From positions 56 through 64,055 of the forward strand of contig CAZDBH010000004.1 of the NCBI GenBank assembly GCA_964503485.1: a DNA stretch of 64,000 nucleotides, given 5' to 3'. Below, in pieces: positions 1,873 to 26,717 of the stretch (within the stretch, counting starts at the first letter, position 1; every line of letters begins with the position of its first letter). A model generated the notes under the pieces. The model made no database searches. It was given only the letters and a program-made list of their open reading frames with translations, and had not been told where the DNA came from. Source of the DNA: an uncultured Bradymonadales bacterium. GTDB lineage: Bacteria; Myxococcota_A; Bradymonadia; JAFGEP01. Position numbers and translations under genes: made by a program.

Positions 1873-2052
1873 CTAGAAGTTGTCCAGAATCGTGGAAATC
1901 ATCGATACGACGTCGGTGATGTCCAGAAGGTCGTCGTCGACTACATCGGCTACCACTTGCTCGATCTCGTTGAGTGTCATGCTGCCTAGGATGTGATTCA
2001 ACAGGCGCACCACGTCGGCTACGGTGAGCTCACAGTCTTCATCGATATCGCC
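1873..2052 (-). other. Dockerin-like module of protein A
   Basis: GD-x-D-x-D...D helix NHILG, linker, AD-x-x-D-D...D helix IL: two EF-hand-like loop/helix units at the extreme C-terminus. Confidence 0.8.
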
Positions 2053-5000
2053 GGTTCGTGCTCCGGTCGACGTGTAGATTCGTCTGCTGAAGGCTGCTTC
2101 GAGGGGCGTATTGAAGATCACTGCTTCGATTTCGTGTAGGGAGTCTCGGGGATCGACGGGCAAATCAACCGTGCCCACCAGCGCTGTCACACGAGTGGCC
2201 TCTTCACCACCGACCCTGAAACTGATGAAACTGTCGAATTCAGGCTCCCAGGATGATGCGACGTAATCCAAGCGGACATTCGACGCACACGTATTGTCGA
2301 CGATATCGAGTGCCAAGGTGGGATTGCCGATCTCGGCGATCGTCGCCTCCTCAAAGCCGACCGTGAATCGAACGGCGTGAAGGTCTTCCGGCGTCTGCAG
2401 CCCCTGGGCGATCAGACGCCACATGACGTAGATCGGCAGGGTTCCGTTCTGTATTTCAACTGTCAGGACGCTGTTTCCCGACGCGTTGGGCAACCCACAA
2501 CCCAACAATTCCAGGTTCGTACAACTACTATCACCCTGCCACGCGCAAACCTCGGCAGGGTTGCCGGAACTGTTGGTCAGATGGAATAGGCCCGTGTATC
2601 CGGCTGGGTCGATGACATAGTATTCCACCGGCCGTTGAACGAGTGCTTCGCCTCGCCGCCACGGAGTCCGGACACCCGAAACGCGCGCCATCGTCACTTC
2701 GTCCGCTGCTTCCTCGCACAGATTCGTACAGTAGTTGGTGTCCCCGGCAACCGAGTACCCAGTCGGCGCGCTCTGGACTGTCGCCCCGCCACCTTCTCTG
2801 AGCGCGGTGACGTCGAAACACAGCAGCCCCAAATCAGTGCCTGGCATTTCCGCGGCTGGCCGTCCTCCCTCGACAATGAGCTCCGACTGGAGTCCAGCCC
2901 CAACCAGTGTTTGTGAAACCCGGTAGGCGTCCGCCTCAGGTTCGGCATCCCACCACACCAGCGTCCCCGCCGATGTAAAGAAGTTCTGATCGTTGGGATC
3001 GAGCTGCCGCACGTTGATGTTTGTCGGCGAAGCCAACGTCAACGGTATACCGGTGATGTCATTGCCAGACGTGGTGCCGGATACCGAAGTCGGATTGCTC
3101 TCGACCCTGAGTACGTCGAGCTGCTGACGGAGCGCGCGCATACGGAGGATCGTCTCAATCTGATAGTCGTAGTCGAGATTGGGACCGAGCCGGTTATCGA
3201 GGTAGCAGGCTGCACCCCAATGATGGGCCACTACAACGAATTCCTCTTGCCCGCTCAATCGCCGCGAGACTCGATATGAGATTGAATCTGGGTCGAGCGG
3301 AATGCCCTTGAACTCAACGACCGGATCCCAACAGACCAGGATCTCGCCGGCTCTATTGTCGGTAGCGGTCAAGTTGCTCGGAGCGTCCAATTCCGCTGTC
3401 GGGTTCTCCGAAAGATCGAGCATCATCCAGGTAGGAAGCACCTCACCAAAATGGGTCGTCCTGATTTTGAGTTGTTGGCCGCCCACTGCATTGATTTCTA
3501 CGGCCCAACGGTTCTCTCGCACCAGTTCACCGCCCGTCTCTGGGCAGTCCCCAAAGATGCTGATGAGCGGATCGCCGCCCTCCAGCGTCTCGGTTCGGGG
3601 TGCGGGAGCCAACCGTTCATCGTTGAACTGATTCGGTTGATTGACCCAGGCGAAGACACGGCGTGGTTCCCCTGGCGAGCCCCCGACCGTGTAGTCGAAC
3701 CAAGCCGGTAGGCCAGGATCGTTCATTTGATTCAGCGCGTAGCCGCTTCCTTCGGAATAGGCCTCTGCTCGGATCGCCTCGCTGCAGAACACACCGTTGT
3801 CGACAGTAATCGGCGGTCTGGCGCATGTCGTCGATGCCCCTGAAACGCTGGGATCGCTGTACGTATTGGTCTCAAAATCGCGTTGAACGGCGACGAAGCA
3901 GTAGCGCGCACCCGGAAGGAAACCCGAATTGTCCAGGTCGATTGTGGTCACTCCCGAAGGATCCGCTACGTAGCGACCTACCTCGACGGCACACTCGTCG
4001 AGATCGCCCAAATCCCAGGTTGGGTTTGTACCCATGTTCGGGAACTGGAACGCCGAACGCCACAGGTTGCTTCGGTTCGCAGAGAGTGCGATTTGAGCTT
4101 CACAGCCGGCCTGCTGGTAGAGAATCACTTCATCCGCCTCGGTACCCCGTGGCCCGATCGGCGTCTCCACTTCGATACGCAACACCCCTGCGGTTGCGCC
4201 GCTGGCGCTGAGAATGGGGCGACTGAGCTCTTCCTCAGCTTGAACCGTCGCCGTCAGCGAACCTGGGCCCGCTGCGAGGGGATCGGTGAATCCGAGGTGA
4301 ATGTTGATTGTGCGGTCTCTTCGTGTGGGGACGGTGAACTCGGCACCTTCCCCTTCGTCGAAGATCCAGCTTCTGAACGGACGTTGAAAGTAGCCCCGGG
4401 GGCTGTATCCAAGCATGACTTCGGACGGAAAACCCACGGTGGTGATGTCCAGAGACAACGAAGCTGGATATCGAACAACGCTGGCCTCTCCAGCGGCTGT
4501 GTCGAAATCGAGGGCGTACAAGTCGCCAGAGAGCTGATCGATCAGGATTTCGCGACGCTCCACACCGGGCGGCATCGCAATGTATTCGGTGACGGTTCCC
4601 AGGTCGTTGAGCGCGACTTTCACCATTCGGGTGCCGCCCGAGTCGATGATGTACATCGCCTTGGTATCGGTCATCTGGTACTGGAGACGGTCGAGCCAAT
4701 CGTACCATGTTGCGCCCAAGACGTCGGGGACCGGATCCCAGATGACAATACCGGTAGGATTGATCAGACCCGCCGAGGCCGGCACCATAATGGGATCGCC
4801 CCTCCAGCTATCGCGTCTGATCATGTTATCGTCTGAACTCGTTATGTAGCGGCCGCCCGGGCCGACATACGTCCCCATCGGCCCAGCGAGGTTGTTCCGG
4901 GGGGACTGCCAGGTGTACCGACTATCGGGGCTGAGCGTGTACATGGCGTCGCTGGCGTAACCCGTGACATAGAAGTTGGCGCAGGCATTCATCCAGTCAA

Positions 5001-5688
5001 AGTAGTTGGTCCGATCGCAGGCTAAGTGGGTCGGTTCCCGAATCCCACCGGTACTATAATGTGACTGATACTCACCGTCTGGGTTGAATCGAAGGATACG
5101 ATGATTGTCTCGACTGGCGACGAAGAACATTTGCTCCCAGACGATATCGTCCATCGTGTACGAGCCACCCGGTCGCTGAAACCACCTGCCCCAGGAGATA
5201 TCCCACGGACCGTCCATCTGGCCGCTCACGTCTCCGTCGTACATCACCTCGGAGGTGCCGAGTGCAGCGTCGTACCTGACGAGTTGATTGGCACCGTAGT
5301 CGGCGAACCAGAAGTCGCCGTTTGGAGCGATCGCGAAGCCGGTCGGGTTCGTCATGCTGATCCCGCCAGCCATGACCTCGACGTTGCTTGGGGGTGCAGT
5401 GTAAGTGAAGATTTCGCCGCCCGGTCGGCCCGTCGCCGCGTACGCTTGGTTGTCGGCGAGATCGGTGAAAGTGCTTTCGTCCCAGCCGAAATAGAAGGGA
5501 AAAATCGAGTCTCGGTCCGGGTTCTGAAAAGTATCGGGTATGCCACGGAATCCGAAGTACCAGTACGGGCCGACGGGACCGTCATCGCTCCGCTCCTGGG
5601 CCTCGGCTGGAGAGCCGATCGCCAACGACGCGAGAGCAAGCGTGATGGTCATTGCGAGGAGTTTGGGGGCTGATTTGCGAGGCCTCAT
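1873..5688 (-). CDS. Large secreted protein A: NHL-like beta-propeller, Ig/Fn3 stalk, C-terminal dockerin-like module
   Basis: Signal peptide (AEA|Q). Propeller blades NPTGFAIAPNGDFWFADYGANQL, GPWDI, EPTHLA, GPMG, NPTGI. Fn3 APSNLTA..VCWDPV..YRV. Duplicated Ca-loop tail GDIDEDCELTVAD / ADVVDDDLLDITD. Confidence 0.85.
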   Translation of the reverse strand: MRPRKSAPKLLAMTITLALASLAIGSPAEAQERSDDGPVGPYWYFGFRGIPDTFQNPDRDSIFPFYFGWDESTFTDLADNQAYAATGRPGGEIFTYTAPPSNVEVMAGGISMTNPTGFAIAPNGDFWFADYGANQLVRYDAALGTSEVMYDGDVSGQMDGPWDISWGRWFQRPGGSYTMDDIVWEQMFFVASRDNHRILRFNPDGEYQSHYSTGGIREPTHLACDRTNYFDWMNACANFYVTGYASDAMYTLSPDSRYTWQSPRNNLAGPMGTYVGPGGRYITSSDDNMIRRDSWRGDPIMVPASAGLINPTGIVIWDPVPDVLGATWYDWLDRLQYQMTDTKAMYIIDSGGTRMVKVALNDLGTVTEYIAMPPGVERREILIDQLSGDLYALDFDTAAGEASVVRYPASLSLDITTVGFPSEVMLGYSPRGYFQRPFRSWIFDEGEGAEFTVPTRRDRTINIHLGFTDPLAAGPGSLTATVQAEEELSRPILSASGATAGVLRIEVETPIGPRGTEADEVILYQQAGCEAQIALSANRSNLWRSAFQFPNMGTNPTWDLGDLDECAVEVGRYVADPSGVTTIDLDNSGFLPGARYCFVAVQRDFETNTYSDPSVSGASTTCARPPITVDNGVFCSEAIRAEAYSEGSGYALNQMNDPGLPAWFDYTVGGSPGEPRRVFAWVNQPNQFNDERLAPAPRTETLEGGDPLISIFGDCPETGGELVRENRWAVEINAVGGQQLKIRTTHFGEVLPTWMMLDLSENPTAELDAPSNLTATDNRAGEILVCWDPVVEFKGIPLDPDSISYRVSRRLSGQEEFVVVAHHWGAACYLDNRLGPNLDYDYQIETILRMRALRQQLDVLRVESNPTSVSGTTSGNDITGIPLTLASPTNINVRQLDPNDQNFFTSAGTLVWWDAEPEADAYRVSQTLVGAGLQSELIVEGGRPAAEMPGTDLGLLCFDVTALREGGGATVQSAPTGYSVAGDTNYCTNLCEEAADEVTMARVSGVRTPWRRGEALVQRPVEYYVIDPAGYTGLFHLTNSSGNPAEVCAWQGDSSCTNLELLGCGLPNASGNSVLTVEIQNGTLPIYVMWRLIAQGLQTPEDLHAVRFTVGFEEATIAEIGNPTLALDIVDNTCASNVRLDYVASSWEPEFDSFISFRVGGEEATRVTALVGTVDLPVDPRDSLHEIEAVIFNTPLEAAFSRRIYTSTGARTGDIDEDCELTVADVVRLLNHILGSMTLNEIEQVVADVVDDDLLDITDVVSMISTILDNF

Positions 5689-5879
5689 TATTCAGTTGCC
5701 TCCGCTTCGGTCAGAATCGTCGTGACGAGTTCCACCAGGTCCAATATGTTTACCTCGCTGTCCTGGCTCATATCCGCTACCGGCAGAATGCCATCGACAA
5801 ATGAGACTCGCCCCAGGATGTGGTTGATCAAACGGACCCCATCGAGCACGTCGAGTGAACAGTCGAAGTTCACGTCGCC
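5688..5879 (-). other. Dockerin-like module of protein B
   Basis: GDVNFDCSLDVLDGVRLINHILG...ADMSQDSEVNILDLVELVTTIL. Confidence 0.82.
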
Positions 5880-8800
5880 CAGAATCCGGTCCGCCGGGAC
5901 AAGTAGAGTGCGGCTGAACTCGAGCTCGAGTGGGTTGTTGAACAGTTGCACAGTGATTTCGTGCAGGACTCGCGACGGATCAAGCGGGACCGGAAGGGTC
6001 CCCGAGAGCTCGGTAATGCTAGCCGCCTCGGCCCCATCAGAGAGAATTGAAGCGTACCCGTCGGGACCAGTTGCCCAGTTCGAGATCAAGTAGTCAAGGG
6101 TCAACTCAGTCGCACATTGTTGGCCGATAACGGTCATCGCGATTTCTGGATTGGTGCTGGCTGTGGCGACGCCGAACCCGAACTGAATCGGAAAGGTGAT
6201 TGCCTGTTGCTGGCGTGGACTCATTGTCTCGGGCGGCAGATAGCGCCAACGGAAAATCAGCTTGTCGACCACCTCAGCCAAAAACAGGTTCAAGAAGGCG
6301 TTTCCATACTCGTTGGATATGACGCATCCCTCAAATACGAGGTCGTTGCAGAGACTCGATCCGGTCCAGGCGCAGACCTCAGCGGGCTGACCGCTCTCGT
6401 TGGACGAAAACACCTGACCCAAACGGCCCTGAGTATCGAGTTCGTAGTATCTAACAGGGCCGTAGAACTGGACTGTCTCCACGGTCGGGCCGCTAAACCG
6501 ATTGAGCGGGTCGCCGGTGATCTGCACGGTTTCGGTGGCGTCTTCGCAGAGATTCACGCAGTAGTCCGTGTCGCCTGCCTCGCTCCACCCCGCGCTTGCT
6601 CCTTCGACGACATCACCTTCGGGGCTGGTCCATTGTGGCGTCACGTCGTAGCAATACGACCCCAGTGGCAGGTCGAGGGCTGGGAACTCGCCGGCTCTCG
6701 ATCCGCCGGCCAAAATGAAGCTCTCACTCTCGAGGCTGTTCGCTTCTGTTTGCACCACACGATAGGACGTCGCGACCGGGTCGCGGTCGAACCAGACCTG
6801 GGTACCGGCGGACGCGCCTCCGTCTATCAGTACGGGGAGCTGCACGTTCAGACCGGTGACGGCAGCAAGCGTGGGAGTCAGGTCGACCGAAATGCCGTTA
6901 GTCGAGCCAGTCACGGGGCCTGCCCGCTCACCGAGCAGCTCGATCTGCTGCGTCTGAGTGTCCAGCGCCTTGAGGTCGTATCTTGGCGTGATCCAATAGT
7001 CCCATGAACTGTCGGCGGCGAGACCGTAGTCGACGAAACAGGTGGTTCTCCAATTCTCCTGCAGAACCTCTGACGGACTGCCACCTACCGGTCCACGGGC
7101 AATTCGATAAGACAACCGCTCTTCGTCCATGGCTAAGCCGACGAAGTGGGACAGACCATCCCAGCATACAGTGACCCGGCCAGACTCGTCGGTTGAGGCG
7201 ACCAGGTTGCTGGGCGCGGCAATTTCGCTCGTGGGACCAACCGACAGGTCGAACATGCGCCATGTAGCGGGAAACTTCTCGAAGTGGACGATACGAATTC
7301 GAAGCCGGTCACCACCACGAGCTGTGAGGGATACAACTTGCTGGCCTTGGGCCAGTAGCTGGCTGCCCTCGACGGATGGGCAGCTATCGTAGACGCTGAT
7401 CAGAGCGTTGATGGCCTCTTCGTTGTCGACCCAGATGACGACTTGTCGTTCCTCGGAACCGCTGCCTTCTACCGAATACTCGAACCAACCCGGGGTTCCT
7501 CCTGCCGCCGTAGGAAGCAGTGGAAAACCACTGCTCTCGTCGTAGGACTCGGCTGGGAGCGCCTGATTGCAGAAGATCCCATTGCGGCCACCGTTGCCAG
7601 GGCGTTCACAGGCGTCGATGTAGTTCAAATCACTGAATTCACTAACAATACTGTCGTCATCGTCGATCGAAAGCGCGACCATGCACTGCTCGGTATCCGG
7701 AATCCATGGCACCTCGTCGAGCGTCACCGTGGTGGTTCCCGACGGGTCAGCGGGAAAGAAGCCCGCAAAGCTGAGACAATCGTCTGCCAGCGCTTGGGAA
7801 AAATGGGCGTCGCGAACCGGGTTAGGGAAGGGAAAGACTTCTCCGGGAATGCGTCCGCCGAATCCGTTAACGTTGTATACGGCGGCTGCCAGGTCGATGA
7901 GTTCCGTGCAATCGGTAAGAACGTAGAGGGCCAGCCTGTCGGGTTCAGCACCCAACGCGCCGACGGGGTGGACTACCTCTGCCTCGAGAACCCCTCCGAC
8001 GGGAGATGACAGTGCAAGCGTTGGCTTGGGCAACACTTGATCAAGGGTTTGGGTGAAACTGGCCGTCACCGGCGCGGCGCTCTCAGGGTCGCTCCAGCCG
8101 AGATAGAAGTAGGCTTCGTCGTCTCTCACAACAGGCACCGTGAAGGACGCCCCGGCATCGGTCGCGCCTATGATCCAACTGTCGTCGACCACCCGTCCAC
8201 CCAGCATGGCGCCCACGTAGAGGTCGGCGGCCGATCCCCCATCGAACTCGGCAAAATACCGCTCTCGCTCGACAATCAAGGATGCCTCACCCGATCCGGT
8301 GTCTGCCGATGTGAGGAACAAATCACGGGTGTTTAGATCGAGCAGCATACCGGTTGGTGAATCGAGGCCATCGCGAAAGACGGTGGGAGTCGAGCCGGCC
8401 AAGGCTGACCGAAAGATGGTGTCTGCTCCTTGGTCAACCACGAACAACCCGGCACTTGGTCTTGCCCGCCAAGAGATGTAGTCGTGTACGTGCGGATTGA
8501 GCGGATCCGGACTCGGATCCATGAGGCTGATCGAGACCGGGTCGACGAAGTGATTCGTCCCATCTACGATAACCTCCGGTCCTACGCCACCGAAGCCGAA
8601 GGGGCCGAAATTGGCTGCTTGGATGACCTTTCGGCTGTCACGGCTGAGGATAAGGTGGGGTGTGGTTGATCCCAGGTTGATCGCTACGTCGATTGGACCG
8701 TCGAATAAGGGTGAACTGATAAAACTAAATGTTCTGCAACTCGCGCATCCGGAGTACCCGATTATCCTGTCTGCCGCGTAGTCGGCGACTGCTACGTAGC

Positions 8801-9488
8801 CGAAGACCTCCCAGATCTGGGTCGAATCGTTGAAGCGCCATGCTTCTCCGATTCCTGTGGGCTCGATTATTCCGGATCCGGACTTGTACTCGGCATAGCC
8901 CCCGCTGTTTGTGAGCTCGATCAAACGGCCGTTGTCTCTGCTCGATATAATCGCTCGGATTGGCGGTTCGCCTGGCGCCAGCGCCTCGGGGTATACGATG
9001 CCGTTTCCTGCGCGACCGTGCCAAAAGAAGCCGACGTCCCATGGCCCTGATAACTGCGGTCCGTCGTAAATCGTCCGAAAAACGCCGCTGACCGGATCAA
9101 AACCAACGACTCGATTTGCACCGTAGTCGGCTATCCAGATTTCGCCGGTGTCAGGGTGTTGGCTCATCCCGGTCGGTTGAACCAATTCGGCACTGGAGAG
9201 CAGTTCCGTTTCGAGCGCTGGAACCAGATACTGATAGAGGTTTCCGTCTGGAGAGCCACTGGTGGTTACGACGTCTCCGTCGCGCAATTCGGGAATCGGC
9301 ACGCCTTGGTCTTGCCACCGAATCGCCGCCCGCGTTTGCGATGGCAGGGCACCTTCGGTATCGCCAAAATAGGTCAACGGCTCGATAGGCCCGTCGGGGA
9401 TGACGACCTGCGCCGAGGATGACAGAGGCACCACTAGCAGGGCGAGGCAGAGAACATGTCGGAGTGCAGCTGTTGATCGTCGTTTCAT
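5688..9488 (-). CDS. Large secreted protein B, paralog of A (beta-propeller/Fn3/dockerin-like)
   Basis: Signal peptide (SSA|Q), same domain order and conserved motifs as A (PTG..IWIADYGANRVV, DPSGTTT, NGIFCNQA, APSNL, AGDTDYCVNLCEDA). Its TAA overlaps the ATG of A (TAATG at 5690-5686). Confidence 0.85.
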   Translation of the reverse strand: MKRRSTAALRHVLCLALLVVPLSSSAQVVIPDGPIEPLTYFGDTEGALPSQTRAAIRWQDQGVPIPELRDGDVVTTSGSPDGNLYQYLVPALETELLSSAELVQPTGMSQHPDTGEIWIADYGANRVVGFDPVSGVFRTIYDGPQLSGPWDVGFFWHGRAGNGIVYPEALAPGEPPIRAIISSRDNGRLIELTNSGGYAEYKSGSGIIEPTGIGEAWRFNDSTQIWEVFGYVAVADYAADRIIGYSGCASCRTFSFISSPLFDGPIDVAINLGSTTPHLILSRDSRKVIQAANFGPFGFGGVGPEVIVDGTNHFVDPVSISLMDPSPDPLNPHVHDYISWRARPSAGLFVVDQGADTIFRSALAGSTPTVFRDGLDSPTGMLLDLNTRDLFLTSADTGSGEASLIVERERYFAEFDGGSAADLYVGAMLGGRVVDDSWIIGATDAGASFTVPVVRDDEAYFYLGWSDPESAAPVTASFTQTLDQVLPKPTLALSSPVGGVLEAEVVHPVGALGAEPDRLALYVLTDCTELIDLAAAVYNVNGFGGRIPGEVFPFPNPVRDAHFSQALADDCLSFAGFFPADPSGTTTVTLDEVPWIPDTEQCMVALSIDDDDSIVSEFSDLNYIDACERPGNGGRNGIFCNQALPAESYDESSGFPLLPTAAGGTPGWFEYSVEGSGSEERQVVIWVDNEEAINALISVYDSCPSVEGSQLLAQGQQVVSLTARGGDRLRIRIVHFEKFPATWRMFDLSVGPTSEIAAPSNLVASTDESGRVTVCWDGLSHFVGLAMDEERLSYRIARGPVGGSPSEVLQENWRTTCFVDYGLAADSSWDYWITPRYDLKALDTQTQQIELLGERAGPVTGSTNGISVDLTPTLAAVTGLNVQLPVLIDGGASAGTQVWFDRDPVATSYRVVQTEANSLESESFILAGGSRAGEFPALDLPLGSYCYDVTPQWTSPEGDVVEGASAGWSEAGDTDYCVNLCEDATETVQITGDPLNRFSGPTVETVQFYGPVRYYELDTQGRLGQVFSSNESGQPAEVCAWTGSSLCNDLVFEGCVISNEYGNAFLNLFLAEVVDKLIFRWRYLPPETMSPRQQQAITFPIQFGFGVATASTNPEIAMTVIGQQCATELTLDYLISNWATGPDGYASILSDGAEAASITELSGTLPVPLDPSRVLHEITVQLFNNPLELEFSRTLLVPADRILGDVNFDCSLDVLDGVRLINHILGRVSFVDGILPVADMSQDSEVNILDLVELVTTILTEAEATE

Positions 9489-9491
9489 AGC

Positions 9492-9677
9492 TTATCCCGA
9501 CAGGTCGTTGAGAATGTGGGAGATCATCGCAACCATATCGAGGATGTCGACCTCGGTGTCCTCGTTGAAGTCACCTAGTGGAAGCAGTGCTTCGGCGATG
9601 AGTTCGAGTCCGAGGATGTGGTTGTTGATGATGACGACATCGAGCACGTTGATTCGGCAGTCGTGATTTACGTCACC
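9492..9677 (-). other. Dockerin-like module of protein C
   Basis: GDVNHDCRINVLDVVIINNHILG...GDFNEDTEVDILDMVAMISHIL. Confidence 0.85.
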
Positions 9678-12600
9678 GATTGATTCGCCGGTCGCAATGT
9701 AAGCTAGGCGCTCGTACACCTTCTGGAACGGGTCGGCGTAGAGCGCCACCTCGATGGTGTGCAGCGCCACTAGCGGGTTGACTCGCACCTCGACTCGCGT
9801 TGCCAGCTGGTCGTGCACAGAAGCGATCTGCCCATCAGCCAGGATAGCGACGAACGACTCCAGTCCTGGCTCCCAACCCGACACCCAGTAGTCGACCGTG
9901 ATACCCGAAGCGCATGCGCTGTCGAGGTCAACGCCAACGTTGGGAACAGCAGTGCCGCCGGTCGGTATCAACCACGAACTCGATTGAGGAGCGTGGCCAA
10001 TGCCGAATTCGATTCGGGCCAGAATTTCATCTAGCGCCTCGAGTTCAGTCAGGCTTCGCGGATAGAGCTCCTCGAGCAGTTCGACGTGAACATAGATGTT
10101 GTCGGTCTCGGAGCCGGTCTCGACATCGGTTCGCAGTATTCCGAACGTGTCAGATACGCCTTCACCCCGGTAGGTCAGATTATTGCAGTCAGGGCCTGAA
10201 TAAATGGTCGCCCTGAGTGGGACGCCATCGAAACTCGCCACATAAAAGGGCCCTGAGTAGGGTTGATCCTGCCATTCTGAGTTCCGGTGCTGACCAAAGT
10301 CGATGACGTAGTTTCTGGTGAATCCATTGAACCAGCTGAGCCCAGGAAAGACCTCGCCACTGTATTCATCAGGATACCCGGGGACCTGGACCAACGTCGT
10401 CGCCTCCTCGCACACATCGATACAGTAGTCGGTATCGCCAGCTTCGCTGTATCCGGCCACCGGGCTCTGGGTTACCTCACCGCTTGGCTCAGTGCGTTCG
10501 TGATAGAGGTCGATGCAAATGTTGCCGATAGCCTCGATCCTGAGATCGACAGCATGGTTCTGGTCTCTCAGGAGAAACTCCGTCTGCTCCCCCGTTCCGA
10601 TGTCGGTCTGAACCACCCTGTGCTGTGTGGGACCGTAGGCTTCGTCCCATGCCACTTTGATGCCCGCACTGACCGCCGAGTTGATGCCTCGCGGGCTCGC
10701 CGGATCGAGCGGCGCCCGATTGTTGACGTCAGGATGACTGACATACAGGCCGGTGGGACGATCGAGCGTAGGCTCCAGACCGGTCAGGTCGACCGCAGTA
10801 GTTTGCCCTGTCGCGGGGGCACTATTGGCCGATCGAATGATCGCGCTTGCATCTGCTGAACCGACCACCGGGGTTCTGCCGTAGAGTGGATAGAGTGCTG
10901 AGATTCTGTAGTCGTAGGCCACCTCAGGCGCGAGTGTGCGATCGACGAAACAGTGTCCTTGCCAGCTGTCGACCAGAATCGTGTCCATCATCTCACCTTC
11001 GGGTCCTCTCAAGACTTGGTAGGTGACATAGTCCTCGCTGACTTGGTTGAGACCAACTCGCCGCACTGGATCCCAGCAGACGGTGATCTGACCGTCCTCA
11101 GCCACTCCCAAGCTGCCTCCCGAAGCCTCGACGTTGCCGGGGACGGGCTGATCTGCAGTTTGAAGATCGGAGAGATGCCACATCAACGGAGCGCGGGCGA
11201 AGTGGGTCAATCGGAAGTAGACGGTTGTCCCGCCAGGCACCTCCAACATCACTTGTTCGTGACCTGAGGCTATCGGCAACTCTGCTCCACCGGGGCAGGT
11301 TGTGAACGCCGCAAGTAAAGCCGCACCGTTCGCCATTTGCCCTTCGACCTCGGCGACCAGCGTGTGCAGTTCGCTGTCCTCTCCCGGAACCGTGTACGAG
11401 TACCAAGTGGGTGATCCAGTCGCAGACGAGGGCATCTCGACGATGTTGCCCAGGCTCGAAGCGGTCACGGGCAACGCTTGGCTGCAGAAAAGCCCGTTGG
11501 ATGATCCCGCTGACGCGAGCGCACAGGAGTCGAGAAAATCCAGGTTACTGGGCCGACTGAAGGCGTTCCTCGATGGGGCTGTGGCCATGGATACAAAGCA
11601 GTACTTGGTGCCCGGCAGGAACCCTACATCGTCCAAGACAACCTCGGTCGTACCAGATGGGTCGGTGGCGAGTTCCCTGAACGGAGTGAAGCAGTCGAAG
11701 AGGTCGGGATATCTAACCTGAAAGCTGCCAGCTGTCGGGTCGGGTGACGGCCTGGTCCACGGGCTCACAGACCTTCCCCAGTAAAACGAATGATCGCAGC
11801 CCGTGTATTGGTAGAGGTTCAGCTCTTCGGCCCCCGTTGAGTGTTCGATTGAGAGCACTACACCCGGGCCACTCGGATTGCCGGTGGCTGACAAGACGGG
11901 GTGGGTCAATTCCGGTACCAGACCCTGATCGATGGTCACGCCGAAGGGCGTTGCCACACTCGAAGCGGGTCGATCGAGATACAGTGCAAACGTCTCCTCA
12001 CGTCGGGCAGAGAAGGTCAGCTCGTGCCCATTTGAGCTGTCCGCCCACATCCAGTTCAAAAATGGGTTATCGAGCTTGCTCTGGCGGCCAACGCCGATCA
12101 ACACGTCCGTTGGCGCGCCCGCTGCAGAGACCGTCATCTCCACTTCATCGGGAAGAATCGAAAACCGTGAGGTGCCGGCTCCCACGTCAGCAGTGAGGAC
12201 CAGAAGGTCATTCTCCACGCCACCAAACACAAGTGCGGTCGCCGGCGCCAGCAGACTCTGATCGGCCACTTCGGTCCCGTTTCCGTCGGAGAGCTCGATG
12301 ATCGTTCCATCTTCGTTCAGAGCGAACGCATGACCTGGCGGCCGAGCGATTGGGTCGCGGCTCGTCTGGGTATAGGCCACGTCAACCGGACGATCGAGAC
12401 CGTCCTCTGAGTCGTAGACTGGAATAAAGTAACTCGAGGGCATGAAGCCGCTCTCCCGAAAGAGGGTGCTGATCGTGTCGGAACCGTAACTTGCCACCAG
12501 CACGAATCCGTCGTCAGGAACGGCAATACCAAGTGGTTCATCAAACCCGGTGAACGTGTTTTCGCACCAGCTCCCGCTATTGCAGATTCCCCACTCGTCA

Positions 12601-13310
12601 AAACTCCGATAAGCCCCGTACATGCGTACGGTGTTGGTCGAATTGCTCGACACGACGACGTTCGTGCTAAAGGAGTCGAGTACGCCGACGCCCGTCGGGT
12701 CCGGTACACTGCGCTCATTACCGACGACGCCATCGACTACCAAGAAGACCTTGTCGTTGTCGCGGCTCGATACCGCACAGAGAACTTCTGCTTCCGCGGT
12801 CGGGGGGCCACCAAAACCGCCACCGTTGCCGCTGACCATAATGCAGTGAAGGTCCCAAATTCCTTGTAGCCTGGGGTCATCAACCACGGTCGCGAAGTCC
12901 CCTGTGGCGGGGTCCCAAGAAATCACCTGGTTTAGACCATAGTCGGCGATCCAATAGCCTCCCTCTGGGTGGGCCGTAATGCCCGTTGGTCGGACGAGCT
13001 CAGCCCCGTCGGTGATCAAGTTCTGTTCGGCCATCACGCGAACCAGACTGACTTCGCCGCCTGGGTTGCCCGGTGATGTAAATGTGTCGTTACCCTGCCT
13101 GTCCGTGAACGAGTCGAGGTCCCAGAACCAGTCGAAGGGAACGAAGTTGCCGAGGTTCCAGCGACCGACCTTGTCGCCGATCCACCGATAAGGGCCAATA
13201 CCGTCCCGCGGGTCTATCGTGATCTGCGCGGTTGAGAGTACCGGCGACAGCAACAGAGCAGCGGCGACCAACGTAGCGAGAAATCGAGGTGGCGAAGAAG
13301 TCGCGCTCAC
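9492..13310 (-). CDS. Large secreted protein C, paralog of A/B (beta-propeller/Fn3/dockerin-like)
   Basis: Track ORF 9492..13412. The more likely start is GTG 13310, which has GGAGG upstream and precedes a signal peptide ending STA|Q. Same motifs as A/B; 3-nt gap to B. Confidence 0.85.
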   Translation of the reverse strand: MSATSSPPRFLATLVAAALLLSPVLSTAQITIDPRDGIGPYRWIGDKVGRWNLGNFVPFDWFWDLDSFTDRQGNDTFTSPGNPGGEVSLVRVMAEQNLITDGAELVRPTGITAHPEGGYWIADYGLNQVISWDPATGDFATVVDDPRLQGIWDLHCIMVSGNGGGFGGPPTAEAEVLCAVSSRDNDKVFLVVDGVVGNERSVPDPTGVGVLDSFSTNVVVSSNSTNTVRMYGAYRSFDEWGICNSGSWCENTFTGFDEPLGIAVPDDGFVLVASYGSDTISTLFRESGFMPSSYFIPVYDSEDGLDRPVDVAYTQTSRDPIARPPGHAFALNEDGTIIELSDGNGTEVADQSLLAPATALVFGGVENDLLVLTADVGAGTSRFSILPDEVEMTVSAAGAPTDVLIGVGRQSKLDNPFLNWMWADSSNGHELTFSARREETFALYLDRPASSVATPFGVTIDQGLVPELTHPVLSATGNPSGPGVVLSIEHSTGAEELNLYQYTGCDHSFYWGRSVSPWTRPSPDPTAGSFQVRYPDLFDCFTPFRELATDPSGTTEVVLDDVGFLPGTKYCFVSMATAPSRNAFSRPSNLDFLDSCALASAGSSNGLFCSQALPVTASSLGNIVEMPSSATGSPTWYSYTVPGEDSELHTLVAEVEGQMANGAALLAAFTTCPGGAELPIASGHEQVMLEVPGGTTVYFRLTHFARAPLMWHLSDLQTADQPVPGNVEASGGSLGVAEDGQITVCWDPVRRVGLNQVSEDYVTYQVLRGPEGEMMDTILVDSWQGHCFVDRTLAPEVAYDYRISALYPLYGRTPVVGSADASAIIRSANSAPATGQTTAVDLTGLEPTLDRPTGLYVSHPDVNNRAPLDPASPRGINSAVSAGIKVAWDEAYGPTQHRVVQTDIGTGEQTEFLLRDQNHAVDLRIEAIGNICIDLYHERTEPSGEVTQSPVAGYSEAGDTDYCIDVCEEATTLVQVPGYPDEYSGEVFPGLSWFNGFTRNYVIDFGQHRNSEWQDQPYSGPFYVASFDGVPLRATIYSGPDCNNLTYRGEGVSDTFGILRTDVETGSETDNIYVHVELLEELYPRSLTELEALDEILARIEFGIGHAPQSSSWLIPTGGTAVPNVGVDLDSACASGITVDYWVSGWEPGLESFVAILADGQIASVHDQLATRVEVRVNPLVALHTIEVALYADPFQKVYERLAYIATGESIGDVNHDCRINVLDVVIINNHILGLELIAEALLPLGDFNEDTEVDILDMVAMISHILNDLSG

Positions 13311-13311
13311 G

Positions 13312-15594
13312 TCACTCTCCCTCCATGCAGGTATCGACGCATCCCATGTCGGCGTTGGGCAGGCAGACTGCCCCGTCGGTACATCCCTCGTAGACTTCCC
13401 CGCAGCCTCCACTCACTGGAACGTGCACCGAGAGGTCTCTCAGAGTGTTCCATCCGGAATCCCAATGTTCGATTGTGCTCTCGTAGTTTCGGCCGCAACT
13501 CTGCACCTGGGCGGTCGCTGTGCATTGAGCGGAGCACTCTTCCCCGAACCCGCAGGGGTTAGCCGTGCAAACAGAGGGCAGCGTGAACCGACCGTGAAGC
13601 CCCATGGATCGAGCTCCAGCGGCAGCGAGATCGACGTTCGATTCACCGTCGACGTCGCTGACATCCGAGGGTAGGAAAGAGACGTCTTCGTCGATCGTCA
13701 CAATCTCGCCGCATGCTGTCCCTTCGAGTTCGCGATGGGTAGCCACACGACCGGAAATGCACTGCTCGTAGTGGACCCTGCAACTGCCGCTCGTCTCACC
13801 CACACTGGGGCAAAGAGAAGCCGAGTAGAGGCCGAGTTCGTCTATTTCGAGCGTGTAATAGTTGCGGCTGCTGTCCGAGCCCAGCGCAGCCGCGCTATGC
13901 GCTGACCACTGAATCAAATCGTAGCGATAGACGGGGAAGACCGCTCCTACTGCGTCGAAGGATAGCTCCGCAAAACTGGCCAGTGTTGCTTCGACTGGTA
14001 GCTCCAGCGTGGCCGGGACTGCCAACTCGAGATTGGCAGGCAACAGCTCAATAGCGGTGGGAGCGAATAGTGGTTGAAATTCGGATGGACCTCGGTGGGG
14101 GCTTTCAGCAGGTGTCATTGTCGCGAGGCATATCTCAGTTACGTCGGGCAGCGACCCGTTTGGAAAGGTGACCGAGGCGCCTGACGACGCAACCAGACTG
14201 CCCCCTTCGGGTCCGATCTGGGTGCATTCGGGCGGAAGTGAAAACGGAACGACAACCCGCGAATCGGAGTCGGGTCGGATATGAACGGTGTGCCGTCTCG
14301 TACCGCGTGTGGGATGGCTGACGACGAGGTAGTGCGTACCCACGTAGAGCCGGACAATCATCGTGTTTCCACCGGGCAGATTATGAACGGAGTCGTTCGG
14401 GCCCAAGAGTTGGACTGAGTAGGCTTGCAGTTCTTCTTCTGGTGCCTCTTCGGGATCGGCGTAGGGTTCGGGAGATATTGAGAGCGAGAGCCGACCTTCT
14501 TCGACACCGTCGTAGACTGTCACATCGACGGAGTCAGTCAGACGGTTTCCGTCCCATTCGTACTCGGCGGTGATCGTTGCTTGACCGGGAGCGAACGCTT
14601 GGATCATTCCCGTGCGAGAGACCGTCACACTGTCTTCGTTGTCGCTCGTCAGGGTGACAGTCGCGGAGGCCTCCTTGACCCCTTGATTCATGATCGTCGT
14701 CCACGCAGGCTCTGCCGTCGACCCGTAGAAGAATGCAACGTTGAGGAATTCGATCTGACCGGCTCCGTCCCGGGAGTCCGACCCCAGTACGATGTCTGTC
14801 AGCGGCGCGACCCCGATAGCCCGAGGCTCCACCAAAGCGATCGAATCCGTGCAAGGCTCCGAATAGAGCCGGCCCTCGGCTGTGTTTAGGAACGTTTTTA
14901 CCGAGAAGGTGCTCTCCTCGCCGGGTACAATGCCCGCAACCGGGCGGGAAGAGATGTCCGGAAAGGCCAGTTCGGCGACTAACTCGCCGTTGCGTTCGAT
15001 TCGATAGCCTGAGATGTCGTCCGTGTAGCCGGGCAGAATGTCCTCTGGAGCTTGCCGCTGCCAAGCAAAATTCACGCCCTGGGGAAGACGCGGCTCCGCT
15101 GAGCAACCTGCCAGTGCGGCCGGAAGAACAAGTGCGGCCGCGTCCACCTCGGCGAGATCTGCAACGTCGTTCTCTTCGTTGCTGTCCCCATCGTATGCGT
15201 CGACTAGCTCCTCCGTCGTGTCGGAAGCATCCTCGTCGGGTGGAAGGTCGTGGTTCTGATCGCTGTCCTCTGTGGCATCGCTCGAATCGGCTGGCTCTGA
15301 GTCTTCGTCGTACTGGACATCGCTGCTATCGCTGGACAGGTCCTCCGCGTCGTTGCCTGCGTCGGTGTCGCTCCACACGTCCTCGCCCGGCGTGACGCAA
15401 ACACCCTGTTCGGTGTCGCAAACCTGCTCCGGTGTGCAGGGCAACGTGCAGGGCGTTGTTGTTGGTTCGGGCGTTGTGGGATCTTCCCCACACGCCGAGA
15501 GCGCCAGTGCAAGCACCAGGAGTACGGGGCCCAACGTTCCAGTCCATCGGATTTTCAGTGGCCATTCGATGGTATTTGGATCTGTTAAAACCAT
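13312..15594 (-). CDS. Lipoprotein with Cys-rich N-module, acidic linker, Fn3, Big_2-like Ig, ZU5-like domain and Cys-rich C-terminus
   Basis: Lipobox LSA|C; CTLPC..C..C; D/E-rich linker; Fn3 VNFAW..ISGYRIERNG; Ig DSVTVSRTGMIQAFAPGQATITAEY; ZU5-like IGPEGGSL..ASVTFPNGSL. Confidence 0.78.
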   Translation of the reverse strand: MVLTDPNTIEWPLKIRWTGTLGPVLLVLALALSACGEDPTTPEPTTTPCTLPCTPEQVCDTEQGVCVTPGEDVWSDTDAGNDAEDLSSDSSDVQYDEDSEPADSSDATEDSDQNHDLPPDEDASDTTEELVDAYDGDSNEENDVADLAEVDAAALVLPAALAGCSAEPRLPQGVNFAWQRQAPEDILPGYTDDISGYRIERNGELVAELAFPDISSRPVAGIVPGEESTFSVKTFLNTAEGRLYSEPCTDSIALVEPRAIGVAPLTDIVLGSDSRDGAGQIEFLNVAFFYGSTAEPAWTTIMNQGVKEASATVTLTSDNEDSVTVSRTGMIQAFAPGQATITAEYEWDGNRLTDSVDVTVYDGVEEGRLSLSISPEPYADPEEAPEEELQAYSVQLLGPNDSVHNLPGGNTMIVRLYVGTHYLVVSHPTRGTRRHTVHIRPDSDSRVVVPFSLPPECTQIGPEGGSLVASSGASVTFPNGSLPDVTEICLATMTPAESPHRGPSEFQPLFAPTAIELLPANLELAVPATLELPVEATLASFAELSFDAVGAVFPVYRYDLIQWSAHSAAALGSDSSRNYYTLEIDELGLYSASLCPSVGETSGSCRVHYEQCISGRVATHRELEGTACGEIVTIDEDVSFLPSDVSDVDGESNVDLAAAGARSMGLHGRFTLPSVCTANPCGFGEECSAQCTATAQVQSCGRNYESTIEHWDSGWNTLRDLSVHVPVSGGCGEVYEGCTDGAVCLPNADMGCVDTCMEGE

Positions 15595-15609
15595 TCGGTC
15601 GTCGGCTCC

Positions 15610-18486
15610 TCAGTCGATGTGGGAGCATGCGATATGCTCCCGACTGACCCCACCACACGTGGGATACCAGTCGATTTGAAACGGCGCGCACATGTCCAAC
15701 GGGACAACCTCGGCTGCGTAGGCGCAGTTGTCGCCCTCGCTGTAATCCTCACCCGTGTATGCCGATGTGTAGCCGTAGCGAACGCCGCAGGCCGTGCCGG
15801 CCAGTTCGGTGTCGAGGAACGGATCAACCGGGGCCCCAGGGGCGTGAATCAACTTCCAATCGCCATAGTCGCCAAGTGCGGCAGTTGTGAATGTGTTCAG
15901 ATAGCTGTCGTCGAGCGTCGCTTCGTAGAACTCGAGCTGCTCTTCGAGATAGTCCCAACGAAAGGCGTTCTCGCGGTACCAGGGGTGAGCGCTGCCGCCA
16001 CAGAAGTTCTCTTCGATGTTTGGCAGGAACTCGAGCACCAAGACGTAGGTGATCAGGAGCGACCAATACAATTGGTCCCCGTTGCCGAGGTGAGCGTTGT
16101 GTCTTGCATCGAGGAGATCGGTCTGCAGCTCAAACAGCTTGAGCATAATCGTGACCCGCTCGAAGTTGCTGCCTCCGCCGGCCCGAATCGCGGCCACGAG
16201 GGGATCCATTTGGGTCAAAACGTCCATCACTGCGGCGTGCTCGGCGGCGCCGTGCATGACGCCACCCGCATCGCGTATTGATGAGTCCAGCCGGTTTGCG
16301 CTGGCTCGCAATTGGTCGTAGGCATTGCCTGCCTGAAACAGGGGAACCCCTTCGACTTCGCTGGCGATGTCGATTTCCAGCTCACGAGTTACCGGGTCGA
16401 GCAGTGTCATTTGCCGCGTGAAGCCCCAGGCGATGTCCAGAACTGGGTTGGCACTCCCCTCGCTCTTAACCGAGTCCATGACGGACGTCGCCAGCAGAAA
16501 TCGGGTGTTCACGTTGCTGTCGACCGAGACTCGCAAGACGTCGTCGATGTAGGTTCGACTTTCCAGGCTGGAGGCTCGGTACAGCTCGTGTAAGAGCTGA
16601 GCCAACTCGTCGGCGTGTAGCGGGCGGTGGACATTGTTCTCACTGTTCATCAGGCGCGTTCGCACATCGTGTACGAGCTCGTGGATATCCGAGATCGCCG
16701 CAAAGACCGTGGACATGGCTTCGGTGTCGTAGGCCGCGAGAGCGTGTTCGTACAGAGACAGCGAATTCACGCTGTTGAGCCGAGCGGTCTCGACGTAACC
16801 GTCCCCGCCCGAGTCGACCGGGATGACGCTATTGGGCTGTAGATAGACATCGAGCCCACTGATCATTCGACCCAGCGCCAGGGGCAGATCGAGCCGGATC
16901 CATGGCACGTCAAAGGCGGTGGTACTGGTCTGGGTGTCGACCGCGACCGTGACGCGATATCCGAGCACGTAGTTGCCCGAGGGTGTGCCGCGGGAGACGC
17001 TCACTTCGCCGGTCCGGTTGTCGCAGACGGGATCCCCGTTCTCCCAGTCAGACGGCAGCAAGCCGTCGCCACATGCCGGCGCAACGATCGGACGAGCGGG
17101 CTCGTAGGTCTGACTGACAATTGAGATCTGGCCACCCTGAATCTCAGGTGAGACGAGTACGACGTCGACTCCTCGGATGAGAGTCCCTGGTTCGGCTTCA
17201 ATGGCGCACAGTTGGATCGTTTCACCCGGAAAAAGGCCAGGCAGAAAACCGGTTGGCGTCGGTTGGGTGTAGGGTGGATCAGTGGTGCAGTAGAAGTTGG
17301 CTGGGGGCAGAACGCCTTCGACCAACGAGGTGCAGTCACCAAGAATCGTGAAGATCGGATTGCCGCCCGGGTTTGAAAACCGGCCGTTTGGAAGGCAGAC
17401 CTCTGTCGCCCCGAGGTCGTAACCGACGGTCACCAGTGTATACTCGCCAGAGGGTATTGCCCCACCGCTGACTTCGATTCCCACGATGATGGCGTTGTTT
17501 CCCGAGACGCTCCAGCCCGGAGCAGCGGTCTCACCACCTCCCAGAGAGAGCACCTCGATGCCGCTCAGTCCGAGTTGAAACCCTGCGACGGGAAAGAACG
17601 GGCTATTCACTTGGATGTCGAATGTGCTGGCTAAAAGGTCGACGTTTCCGACCGTGACTGTGACGCCCAAGTTTACACAGGCCTCGTTGTCCACACGCTG
17701 CAGGATGCCCTGGGTATCAGAAATGCGCGGCCTGTCGATACAGACAGTCCCGACGGTTTCCTCGACTTCGATGCTCACAATCGTTAGGAGATGATCCCCT
17801 GGCGGCAGCGATCCACCGTTGAGATTGGTCCCAACCACGCCCTTGCTGTTTGCTGAGACGCTCCAACCTGGACTGGCGGTTTCACCGCCTCCGGCGCCAT
17901 CGACGTCGGCTCCTTCGATAGTGAACTGGAAACCCTGAATCGGGTAGACGGGATTCGTAACCCATACTTCAACGGTTCCCTGGGTAGGCCCAGTCTGTAC
18001 AACCTCGCCGAATCGAAGGGATGCGCCCAGGTTGTAGCAGTCGCCGTGGTCTGCGGTCAGCGACCCGCCAGCCGGATCTGAGAACACGGCGTTCTCGTAA
18101 CAACTCTCTTGCAGGTTGGCTTCCGCTACGCTCACGTCGAGGACGGTCAGGACGTACGAGCCTGGGACGATGTACCCGCCCGATGGATGGTGTGCGACGA
18201 TGCCGTCGCCCTGAAGGTCGAAATCCCATAGAGACGCTGCGCCGCCCGACGCGCCGTCGATATTGAAACCTGTTACTTCGAGTTGGAAGCCAGAAAAGGC
18301 ACGGTAGGCCTTTACGCGCACTTCGAGTGTTCCTGAGCCGGTGGGGTTCAAAGAGAGCTCCCCATAGCTCAGCTCGACTGACTGCGCGACCGCCTCAGCG
18401 CTATACCCGCTCACCAACAGGCAGAGACAAAAAGCTAACGCGGCACCCGGAGTCGCCCTGGGCGACAGCGCGGAATGGGTGTTCAC
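15610..18486 (-). CDS. Secreted scaffoldin-like protein: three tandem cohesin-like modules plus an unknown C-terminal helical domain
   Basis: Signal peptide (AVA|Q); three ~118-aa beta-rich repeats, each with GFQ[LF]x[VIL]xG, GGG, [ST]G...PG..L; first gene of the operon. Confidence 0.72.
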   Translation of the reverse strand: MNTHSALSPRATPGAALAFCLCLLVSGYSAEAVAQSVELSYGELSLNPTGSGTLEVRVKAYRAFSGFQLEVTGFNIDGASGGAASLWDFDLQGDGIVAHHPSGGYIVPGSYVLTVLDVSVAEANLQESCYENAVFSDPAGGSLTADHGDCYNLGASLRFGEVVQTGPTQGTVEVWVTNPVYPIQGFQFTIEGADVDGAGGGETASPGWSVSANSKGVVGTNLNGGSLPPGDHLLTIVSIEVEETVGTVCIDRPRISDTQGILQRVDNEACVNLGVTVTVGNVDLLASTFDIQVNSPFFPVAGFQLGLSGIEVLSLGGGETAAPGWSVSGNNAIIVGIEVSGGAIPSGEYTLVTVGYDLGATEVCLPNGRFSNPGGNPIFTILGDCTSLVEGVLPPANFYCTTDPPYTQPTPTGFLPGLFPGETIQLCAIEAEPGTLIRGVDVVLVSPEIQGGQISIVSQTYEPARPIVAPACGDGLLPSDWENGDPVCDNRTGEVSVSRGTPSGNYVLGYRVTVAVDTQTSTTAFDVPWIRLDLPLALGRMISGLDVYLQPNSVIPVDSGGDGYVETARLNSVNSLSLYEHALAAYDTEAMSTVFAAISDIHELVHDVRTRLMNSENNVHRPLHADELAQLLHELYRASSLESRTYIDDVLRVSVDSNVNTRFLLATSVMDSVKSEGSANPVLDIAWGFTRQMTLLDPVTRELEIDIASEVEGVPLFQAGNAYDQLRASANRLDSSIRDAGGVMHGAAEHAAVMDVLTQMDPLVAAIRAGGGSNFERVTIMLKLFELQTDLLDARHNAHLGNGDQLYWSLLITYVLVLEFLPNIEENFCGGSAHPWYRENAFRWDYLEEQLEFYEATLDDSYLNTFTTAALGDYGDWKLIHAPGAPVDPFLDTELAGTACGVRYGYTSAYTGEDYSEGDNCAYAAEVVPLDMCAPFQIDWYPTCGGVSREHIACSHID
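17323..18381 (-). repeat. Three tandem ~118-aa cohesin-like repeats (approx. 18381-18028, 18027-17668, 17667-17323)
   Basis: R1 TLEVRVKAYRAFSGFQLEVTG..SGGAASLW..GYIVPGSYVL..CYENAVFSD..GDC. R2 TVEVWVTNPVYPIQGFQFTIEG..GGGETASPGWSVS..GSLPPGDHLL..CIDRPRISD..EAC. R3 TFDIQVNSPFFPVAGFQLGLSG..GGGETAAPGWSVS..GAIPSGEYTL..CLPNGRFSN..GDC. Confidence 0.85.
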
Positions 18487-26520: not shown

Positions 26521-26717
26521 CGTGTGAGCTCTTCGGCCTCTATTGCGTGGTCGACGAACCACTGTACTGATTGGGTCATTCGTCAAAAGCACAGGCAGAC
26601 TGTACCTGACTCGTTGAAGCAAACCCAATCCAATGTAATCGCGGCAGTCCTGGCAGCTGAGAGCCAACCAATCCAACCCCTCGCGTTGGGTAGGTTGGCG
26701 AGAGGGCGAACCGACGT

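Follow-up and report, generated by a model that had tools for sequence, protein, structure and literature searches.

Modular extracellular assembly has its standard example in the pairing of cohesin and dockerin modules, which is much used in protein engineering; to our knowledge, almost everything known of how the pairing functions comes from cellulolytic Firmicutes. The survey of Peer et al. in 2009 is said to have found non-cellulosomal cohesin and dockerin modules across three domains of life. Genome-inferred cohesin-dockerin assemblies outside the Firmicutes, Gram-negative phyla included, are already in the literature (PMC8542988; Peer et al. 2009 cited there). The first of these describes a cellulosome-like system inferred for Candidatus Stygibacter (Cloacimonadota), in which a scaffoldin-like protein combines tandem cohesins with a C-terminal domain of the type IX secretion system (T9SS), and secreted dockerin proteins, with GH18, GH57 and peptidase cargo, are inferred to assemble on the scaffoldin (PMC8542988). 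Here we analyse a 64,000-nucleotide stretch of contig CAZDBH010000004.1 from an uncultured Bradymonadales bacterium (GCA_964503485.1), referred to at its full length as the window, in which an operon of five genes, g1 to g5, probably encodes a non-cellulosomal cohesin-dockerin assembly system.

The operon occupies 1873-18486 on the minus strand and consists of five intact, co-oriented and tightly coupled open reading frames (ORFs; Table 1). Read directly from the sequence, the g1/g2 junction is TGA, 15 nt (GGAGCCGACGACCGA, with GGAG inside) and ATG; g2 and g3 meet in TGA-C-GTG, g3 and g4 in TAA-GCT-ATG, and g4 and g5 overlap in TAATG. The start of g3 was taken as the GTG at 13310, whereas a mechanical ORF list places it at 13412, inside g2. 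A divergent intergenic region of 204 bp lies upstream of the operon, and downstream a convergent short-chain dehydrogenase gene ends 11 bp from g5. Scans for promoter and terminator consensus sequences within the operon gave matches at the level of shuffled sequence, uninformative either way. The five co-oriented genes and their four coupled junctions are exactly as an earlier reading of the letters (the original prediction) had given them, and its description of the products was likewise borne out: g1 as a secreted protein with three tandem modules (a signal peptide, then modules at aa 36-388), g2 as a lipoprotein (a predicted signal peptide ending in the lipobox LSAC), and g3-g5 as secreted paralogs of about 1270 amino acids (aa; 1272, 1266 and 1271, collinear, with signal peptides).

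The putative scaffoldin, g1, begins with what reads as a signal-like hydrophobic stretch, followed by three tandem modules (R1-R3) of 115-120 aa each with 29-36% mutual identity; every module has two invariant cysteines and a terminal C-x-N/S-L. Whole g1 has no match in Pfam, NCBIfam or the sequences of the PDB. A model of R2 predicted with AlphaFold2 (AF2) from 15 orthologous modules is highly confident (pLDDT 95.2, pTM 0.88) and comprises, by DSSP, about nine beta strands, the last split in two, and one short helix. Compared with the PDB in Foldseek, it returned 39 matches at E<=1e-3 (best E 9.6e-6), and about 44 of the 50 matches listed are cohesins, with TMq 0.6-0.72. These include the Archaeoglobus fulgidus cohesin 2xdh, 2jh2 and 2w1n from Clostridium perfringens, 1ohz, type I and type II cohesins of C. 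thermocellum, and, as second-best match, the type III cohesin 5n5p from ScaB of Ruminococcus flavefaciens. On this predicted jelly-roll model and the sequence links given below we accept the g1 repeats as divergent cohesin-fold modules, in keeping with the cohesin-like character first ascribed to them. An isopeptide adhesin domain, CLIPPER (9ifr), was considered as their main relative and rejected: it is a single lower-ranked match, and the modules have a conserved cysteine pair.

Sequence profiles point weakly in the same direction once the family is widened. The 15-module profile (A2) matched nothing among PDB sequences; for a 57-sequence family profile (A8) the sole match below E 0.01 was 5n5p_A (E 0.0075), which is weak at 19 bits and extends over positions 11-105, near full length. 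Searched against 24,736 models, the A8 consensus had Pfam Cohesin as its top match (E 0.014, positions 1-121 of 139), at 16 bits and so below the cutoff of 24.1, and one relative, P0058, rises above that cutoff (26.5 vs 24.1 bits) exactly on the segment picked out by the module profile. We do not file the g1 modules under PF00963, because the match of g1 itself to Pfam Cohesin was run and failed. The remainder of g1, its C-terminal region, is strongly conserved, numerous positions with His, Glu, Asp or Trp being invariant. An AF2 model from five sequences reached a pLDDT of 46.7 and no fold assignment was drawn from it; Foldseek gave no significant match (best E 0.19) and a profile search against PDB sequences gave nothing. 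Pfam and PDB profile searches of g1 detected neither a carbohydrate-binding module (CBM) nor a surface-layer homology (SLH) domain, a sortase motif or a dockerin.

The modules belong to a large family that is absent from Pfam. At E<=1e-3 a HMMER search with the module profile collected 1,640 cluster representatives, of which 523 reach E<=1e-10; usually they carry 2-13 modules in tandem, and the proteins are up to about 5,000 aa long. Sixty-seven relatives were scanned for other domains: a T9SS sorting domain occurs in 13, Dockerin_1 in 12, trypsin in four and Pfam Cohesin in two. Two architectures recur, a trypsin domain with 2-3 modules and a dockerin, and 3-4 modules with a dockerin. On one contig (L010; GCA_964527215.1, 1-28790) a protein of 2929 aa combines nine cohesin-like modules with a T9SS sorting domain, and Dockerin_1 genes lie within 10 kb of it, namely a GH18 enzyme with a dockerin, an SGL propeller with a dockerin and a T9SS domain, and a DUF1565 protein with a faint dockerin. 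On another (L008, 1572-9617), a 2220-aa protein with eleven cohesin-like modules has an acidic-linker lipoprotein before it and, after it, a gene for NHL repeats (Pfam NHL E 3.5e-10) that the contig end interrupts, the theme of the window in an unrelated lineage. This recurrent association with dockerins is the strongest indirect evidence for a cohesin function of the modules. Since the family escapes Pfam, surveys that use Pfam Cohesin probably undercount such systems. Four of the trypsin-like proteases with 2-3 modules and a C-terminal dockerin (P0058, P0065, P0091 and P0105) deserve mention in their own right, as proteins of this kind could chain head-to-tail or dock onto each other.

The putative counterpart of the modules is found in the last 65 or so residues of g3-g5, proteins that have N-terminal signal peptides. 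Two EF-hand-like loops, each followed by a helix, can be read in all three tails (alignment A3): DVNHDCRINVLD and DFNEDTEVDILD in g3, of the DxNxDxxxxxxD type; DVNFDCSLDVLD and DMSQDSEVNILD in g4; and DIDEDCELTVAD and DVVDDDLLDITD in g5, the latter degenerate with Val at position 3. By their sequence the tails are type-I-like dockerins, in keeping with the duplicated segment of about 22 residues, loop (D1, N/D3, D5, D/N9, D12) and helix, that marks this type. The original prediction had placed a dockerin-like module at the end of each of genes 3-5, and it stands in full for g3 and g4, which exceed the Dockerin_1 cutoff; g5 falls below it and qualifies by homology, its tail being aligned throughout with those of g3 and g4 at 40-41% identity over 63 aa. 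The Pfam check proposed for the pair of modules therefore came out positive for Dockerin_1, in g3 and g4, and negative for Cohesin in g1. When all six frames of the 64-kb window were scanned with self-built hidden Markov models (HMMs), exactly three modules, all in g1, and three dockerin-like tails, in g3, g4 and g5, were recovered; the module E-values (1e-39 to 1e-46 per domain) are high by construction and so give no independent support, which comes from Pfam Dockerin_1 in g3 and g4 and from the fold and family evidence for the modules. Position 6 of dockerin loop 1 is an invariant Cys, in place of the usual Gly, in all five heads available. The heads have 14 invariant cysteines, an even number, so the loop-1 residue may pair with Cys1133 of the preceding domain, and such a disulfide may clasp the dockerin to that domain by analogy with X-dockerin dyads.

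We call g3, g4 and g5 head proteins. They are collinear paralogs of 28-33% identity, and their signal peptides end in S/A-x-AQ. A profile of five heads (A4), compared with the PDB, matched the designed NHL propellers known as Pizza6 (E 2e-13, over six stretches), the NHL domains of TRIM2/3/71 (E 2e-8 to 4e-7) and the PknD sensor domain (E 2e-3), all between profile positions of about 72 and 324; single Pfam NHL repeats in the heads lie just below the cutoff. The beta-propeller heads predicted from the letters are supported by this profile. The Cys-rich middle of each head, about 800 aa, has no Pfam match at E<=1 and gives the impression, from its sequence, of a chain of beta-sandwich domains of FN3-, PPC- or Ig-like type. 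Conservation is distributed unevenly along the heads: the most conserved 60-aa stretch is the dockerin together with the preceding 30 aa (mean pairwise identity 0.49 vs 0.29), and the least conserved part is the propeller (0.24). Neither a glycoside hydrolase nor any other catalytic family was found in g1-g5 by Pfam, NCBIfam and PDB profile searches, and the claim that the operon lacks a glycoside hydrolase held in all three.

Two predicted lipoproteins accompany the scaffoldin and the heads. The lipobox of g2 reads LALALSAC-GED, and those of its orthologs LLTGC and LAAC; after it come a small Cys motif, an acidic linker of about 100 aa, a Big_2 domain (Pfam 27.3 bits, above cutoff) and a weak ZU5-like region (18.1 bits, below cutoff). 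Orthologs of g2 directly follow g1 in three other lineages (L001, L002 and L009) at 29-35% identity. A second gene, divergently transcribed and outside the operon, encodes a predicted lipoprotein of 486 aa that shares the CP..CP...C motif of g2 and has an Asp/Glu-rich linker of about 110 aa and a Cys-rich C-terminal domain. It has homologs in the same position in L001 (40% identity), L002 (38%) and L009 (32%), and a 502-aa gene known by position only in L013; it probably belongs to the same system as the operon. A third predicted lipoprotein, with the lipobox VALSGC and an acidic linker, is encoded at 21975-23003 (-); it has no Pfam match and is 41% identical over the C-terminal 200 aa to a homolog in L001.

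Relatives of g1 amount to only a handful, all metagenomic. A search of 185,579 species-representative genomes found none of g1 or of the heads, of two scans of JGI metagenomes one gave nothing and the other only two short, distant fragments, and a word-indexed homolog search returned only g4 itself and nothing for the module alignment. One relative is a 41-kb contig (L001), whose g1 is 48% identical and in which the lipoprotein gene, g1 and g2 are succeeded, as in the window, by three large genes. The latter encode 1321, 1249 and 1285 aa, the third being known by position and called length only. Identity is 39% between g3 and the first of these and between g4 and the second, against 28-33% between paralogs, and the g1 modules of different lineages are on average 55% identical at the same position and 32% at different positions. 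This positional orthology of modules and heads implies that the lineages split after the origin of all three types of cohesin and of no fewer than two of the heads, which have been kept in order since. In L002 the start of a head gene follows g2, and in L013 and L014 a partial gene, known by position only, comes after g1 where g2 would be expected. A more distant relative is L009 (ENA ERZ24794654, 1-11308), with g1, g2 and the divergent lipoprotein at 35%, 29% and 32% identity and a gene for a PhoD-like phosphatase alongside; its layout indicates that lipoprotein, g1 and g2 form the conserved core, and the heads may be an addition or be encoded elsewhere in that genome. L009 comes from the same sample as L013, which has a closer ortholog of g1, so two lineages with the system coexist there. 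The proposed match of three cohesins to three dockerin proteins thus fares well on the count of modules and tails within the 64 kb and on positional orthology in L001, and less well in L009, where no heads are adjacent.

Taken together, these observations are best accommodated, in our view with moderate confidence, if g1 is a putative mini-scaffoldin whose distinct cohesins dock three dockerin-tailed propeller proteins in a Ca2+-dependent manner, with the lipoproteins linking the whole to the membrane. On this model g1 would be exported and act as a small scaffoldin, and each of its three modules would capture, with the help of Ca2+, the C-terminal dockerin of one co-expressed head. The resulting complex would display three different NHL beta-propellers on long beta-rich stalks, and g2 and the divergent 486-aa protein would be the likeliest link to the outer membrane. 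That the docking end is the most conserved part of the heads and the propellers the most diverged fits a common mode of docking combined with different ligand specificities, and suggests a multi-specific binding device, for instance for adhesion to, or recognition of, a surface or polymer. We infer in this model the binding of module to dockerin, the one-to-one pairing, the location at the cell surface, the role of g2, and a function in binding and not in catalysis.

Several observations weigh against the mini-scaffoldin model, and some of them would suit a different one, in which the g1 modules are structural or ligand-binding beta-sandwiches, CBM-like or stalk-like as in fibrillar adhesins, and the tails are Ca2+-stabilised modules with some other target, such as g2, a polysaccharide or the envelope, leaving five co-expressed surface proteins without cohesin-dockerin pairing. 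We consider this unlikely. The modules fail the Pfam Cohesin model, neither g1 nor the 15 orthologous modules giving a match even at E<=10, and at 115-120 aa they are shorter than classical cohesins, which have roughly 140 aa. A few CBM2 entries and one CLIPPER adhesin domain stand among the lower-ranked structural matches of R2 at similar E-values, so fold alone is no proof of dockerin binding. Many relatives carry long arrays, of up to 13 copies, on giant T9SS-sorted proteins without dockerins, an arrangement that looks stalk-like. The tail of g5 is sub-threshold in Pfam and one of its Ca loops is degenerate, the 11.3-kb contig of L009 retains g1 and g2 without any head or dockerin gene, and dockerin-like modules without known cohesin partners are reportedly common outside cellulosome producers, again according to Peer et al. 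in 2009. What tells against unpaired surface proteins is that cohesins make up about 44 of the best 50 structural matches, that a cohesin is the only PDB profile match below E 0.01, that the family is strongly tied to Dockerin_1 both within the same protein and in neighbouring genes, that no other segment of the heads is as well conserved as the dockerin, and that the 3:3 arrangement has been maintained with positional orthology.

Docking could also serve catalysis. In g1 about 570 aa, and in each head about 800 aa, are without an assigned fold, so hidden catalysis is possible, which is a further point against a purely binding complex; the operon might then encode a true enzyme complex, analogous to a cellulosome but for a non-cellulosic substrate, with its active sites in the six-bladed propellers or the C-terminal domain of g1. 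Lyases and lactonases are known among NHL- and SGL-type propellers. The propeller profile has weak matches to regucalcin, streptogramin B lactonase and PAL (E 0.02-2), the N-terminus of g5 has a weak match to the ScyD/ScyE propeller family (E 1.2e-4), the g1 C-terminal domain is highly conserved with its invariant His, Glu, Asp and Trp, and related systems dock real enzymes, as with the GH18-dockerin protein of L010 and the trypsin proteins with modules and dockerins. Yet no catalytic family rises above threshold in Pfam, NCBIfam or PDB profiles, the best propeller matches are non-enzymatic binding domains (the PknD-derived Pizza designs and TRIM NHL), and conservation along the heads is lowest in the propeller, which would be unusual for a conserved active site; an enzyme complex therefore seems to us distinctly improbable. 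That the locus is a product of chance or annotation, and no functional unit, could appeal to nothing more than the sub-threshold Pfam scores of the modules and the g5 tail. Against it stand intact and coupled ORFs and the highly confident fold of R2, and the conservation of gene order in several lineages at 35-50% identity effectively refutes it, so that we give it almost no credence.

Coordinates of the operon, its modules and domains, and the divergent lipoprotein gene are collected in Table 1. Beyond these, a large protein with FG-GAP, ASPIC and Invasin_D3 domains is encoded a few kb from the operon both in the window (22987-26676, -) and in L001 (2005-5496); the block between this gene and the operon, which contains ARD and its neighbours, is inverted between the two. 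Further along, at 51175-55380 (+), lies a gene for a protein of 1401 aa, in which an MJ0042-type zinc finger at the N-terminus is combined with many TPR repeats; after it come a second TPR protein and a DnaK-like gene that is truncated (516 aa). The window also encodes a Ser/Thr kinase; no rRNA or tRNA gene was found in its 64 kb. The kinase, the FG-GAP/ASPIC protein and the MJ0042-finger TPR protein agree with a Myxococcota or Bradymonadales origin, though they are not diagnostic of it.

Table 1. Positions in the window of the operon genes, their predicted modules and the divergent lipoprotein gene
Feature	Coordinates	Strand	Description and basis
g1, putative scaffoldin	15610..18486	-	958 aa; signal peptide, three cohesin-like modules, ~570-aa C-terminal region; ORF, six ortholog lineages
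g1 module R1, aa 36-153	18028..18381	-	alignment A2; self-built HMM domain E 1.1e-41
g1 module R2, aa 154-273	17668..18027	-	AF2 model and Foldseek vs PDB
g1 module R3, aa 274-388	17323..17667	-	alignment A2; self-built HMM domain E 2.3e-39
g1 C-terminal region, aa 389-958	15613..17322	-	reads as small beta-sandwich, long helical region, Cys-rich end; in all orthologs
g2, predicted lipoprotein	13312..15594	-	760 aa; lipobox, Big_2, Cys-rich C-terminus
g3, head protein 1	9492..13310	-	1272 aa; signal peptide, NHL propeller, Cys-rich beta-rich middle, C-terminal dockerin
g3 predicted NHL-type six-bladed beta-propeller, aa ~70-400	12111..13103	-	profile vs PDB; equivalents in g4 and g5
g3 dockerin, aa ~1208-1272	9495..9689	-	Pfam Dockerin_1 31.8 bits, E 1.7e-7, cutoff 22.9
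g4, head protein 2	5688..9488	-	1266 aa; architecture as g3
g4 dockerin, aa ~1200-1266	5691..5891	-	Dockerin_1 25.0 bits, E 2.3e-5, profile positions 1-54 of 57
g5, head protein 3	1873..5688	-	1271 aa; architecture as g3
g5 dockerin-like tail, aa ~1208-1271, partly degenerate	1876..2067	-	Dockerin_1 10.1 bits, E 0.98
Divergent predicted lipoprotein	18691..20151	+	486 aa; lipobox LPGC; outside 1873-18486

The locus is a small, self-contained test case, with three cohesin-like modules and three dockerins in one operon outside polysaccharide degradation, and it could show whether complexes for binding, as opposed to catalysis, are also assembled by the cohesin-dockerin joint on Gram-negative surfaces. 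As its modules are short, disulfide-containing and very divergent in sequence, it could be a source of new orthogonal cohesin-dockerin pairs as well. As to its novelty, full-text searches of the literature brought up no mention of dockerins in Bradymonadales and none particular to myxobacteria; the original prediction, which knew of no comparable system in Myxococcota, nevertheless overstated the case, since comparable systems outside the Firmicutes had already been reported (PMC8542988). When all features are read jointly, a bolder picture can be drawn, which we offer only tentatively: the locus would be the first case of a cohesin-dockerin scaffold that builds a three-headed complex for recognition or adhesion, without enzymes, on the surface of a Gram-negative cell, with three co-evolved specific pairs and a disulfide-clasped, X-dockerin-like tail, and would represent the tip of a large cohesin clade, so far unannotated and of about 1,640 cluster representatives, that would organise surface proteins (trypsin-like proteases, chitinase-like enzymes, propellers) in marine Gram-negative bacteria.

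Set beside the classical cellulosomes of Clostridia and Ruminococcus (CipA, ScaA/ScaB), the operon appears to follow the same logic, a multi-cohesin scaffoldin and C-terminal dockerins with duplicated Ca2+ loops, and the cohesin of R. flavefaciens ScaB (5n5p) is the best sequence-profile match of the module family. It differs in that the searches detected in it neither a glycoside hydrolase nor a CBM, an SLH domain or a sortase anchor, in that its putative cargo consists of NHL propellers, and in its cell envelope, presumably Gram-negative because of the lipoproteins. Fibrillar adhesins offer another parallel: like them, the heads read as a distal binding domain (the propeller), a Cys-rich, beta-rich stalk and an anchoring module. 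Unlike in them, attachment would go through a non-covalent joint of dockerin and cohesin to a scaffold held in common, in place of a cell-wall or membrane anchor, and the domains of the stalk do not repeat a single family in tandem.

Closer in kind are the non-cellulosomal pairs, such as the toxin and glycosidase complexes of C. perfringens (2jh2, 2w1n, 2vo8) and the A. fulgidus cohesin (2xdh), which join a cohesin fold to type-I-like dockerins for purposes other than cellulose degradation; 2xdh and 2jh2 rank high in the structural comparison of R2. In the window, unlike these, the putative partners lie in one translationally coupled operon, three distinct cohesin-like modules share a scaffold and three paralogous cargos are without a recognised enzyme, and the putative cohesins are shorter, contain a conserved pair of cysteines and go undetected by the Pfam model. 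The system of Candidatus Stygibacter (PMC8542988) is likewise from outside the Firmicutes, and L010, with its nine modules and T9SS domain and a GH18-dockerin gene nearby, resembles that type. The Candidatus Stygibacter system is anchored through the T9SS C-terminal domain; the operon of the window differs from it in having no recognisable enzyme or T9SS domain, and also in its lipoprotein partners, a unique C-terminal domain of g1 and a fixed 3:3 layout. The locus may thus work like a cellulosome without being one, as enzymatic cargo, CBM and a known anchor were not detected; what sets it apart from the described systems is the combination of a compact, coupled operon, a conserved 3:3 layout, propeller cargo, lipoprotein partners and a clade of putative cohesins that Pfam does not detect.

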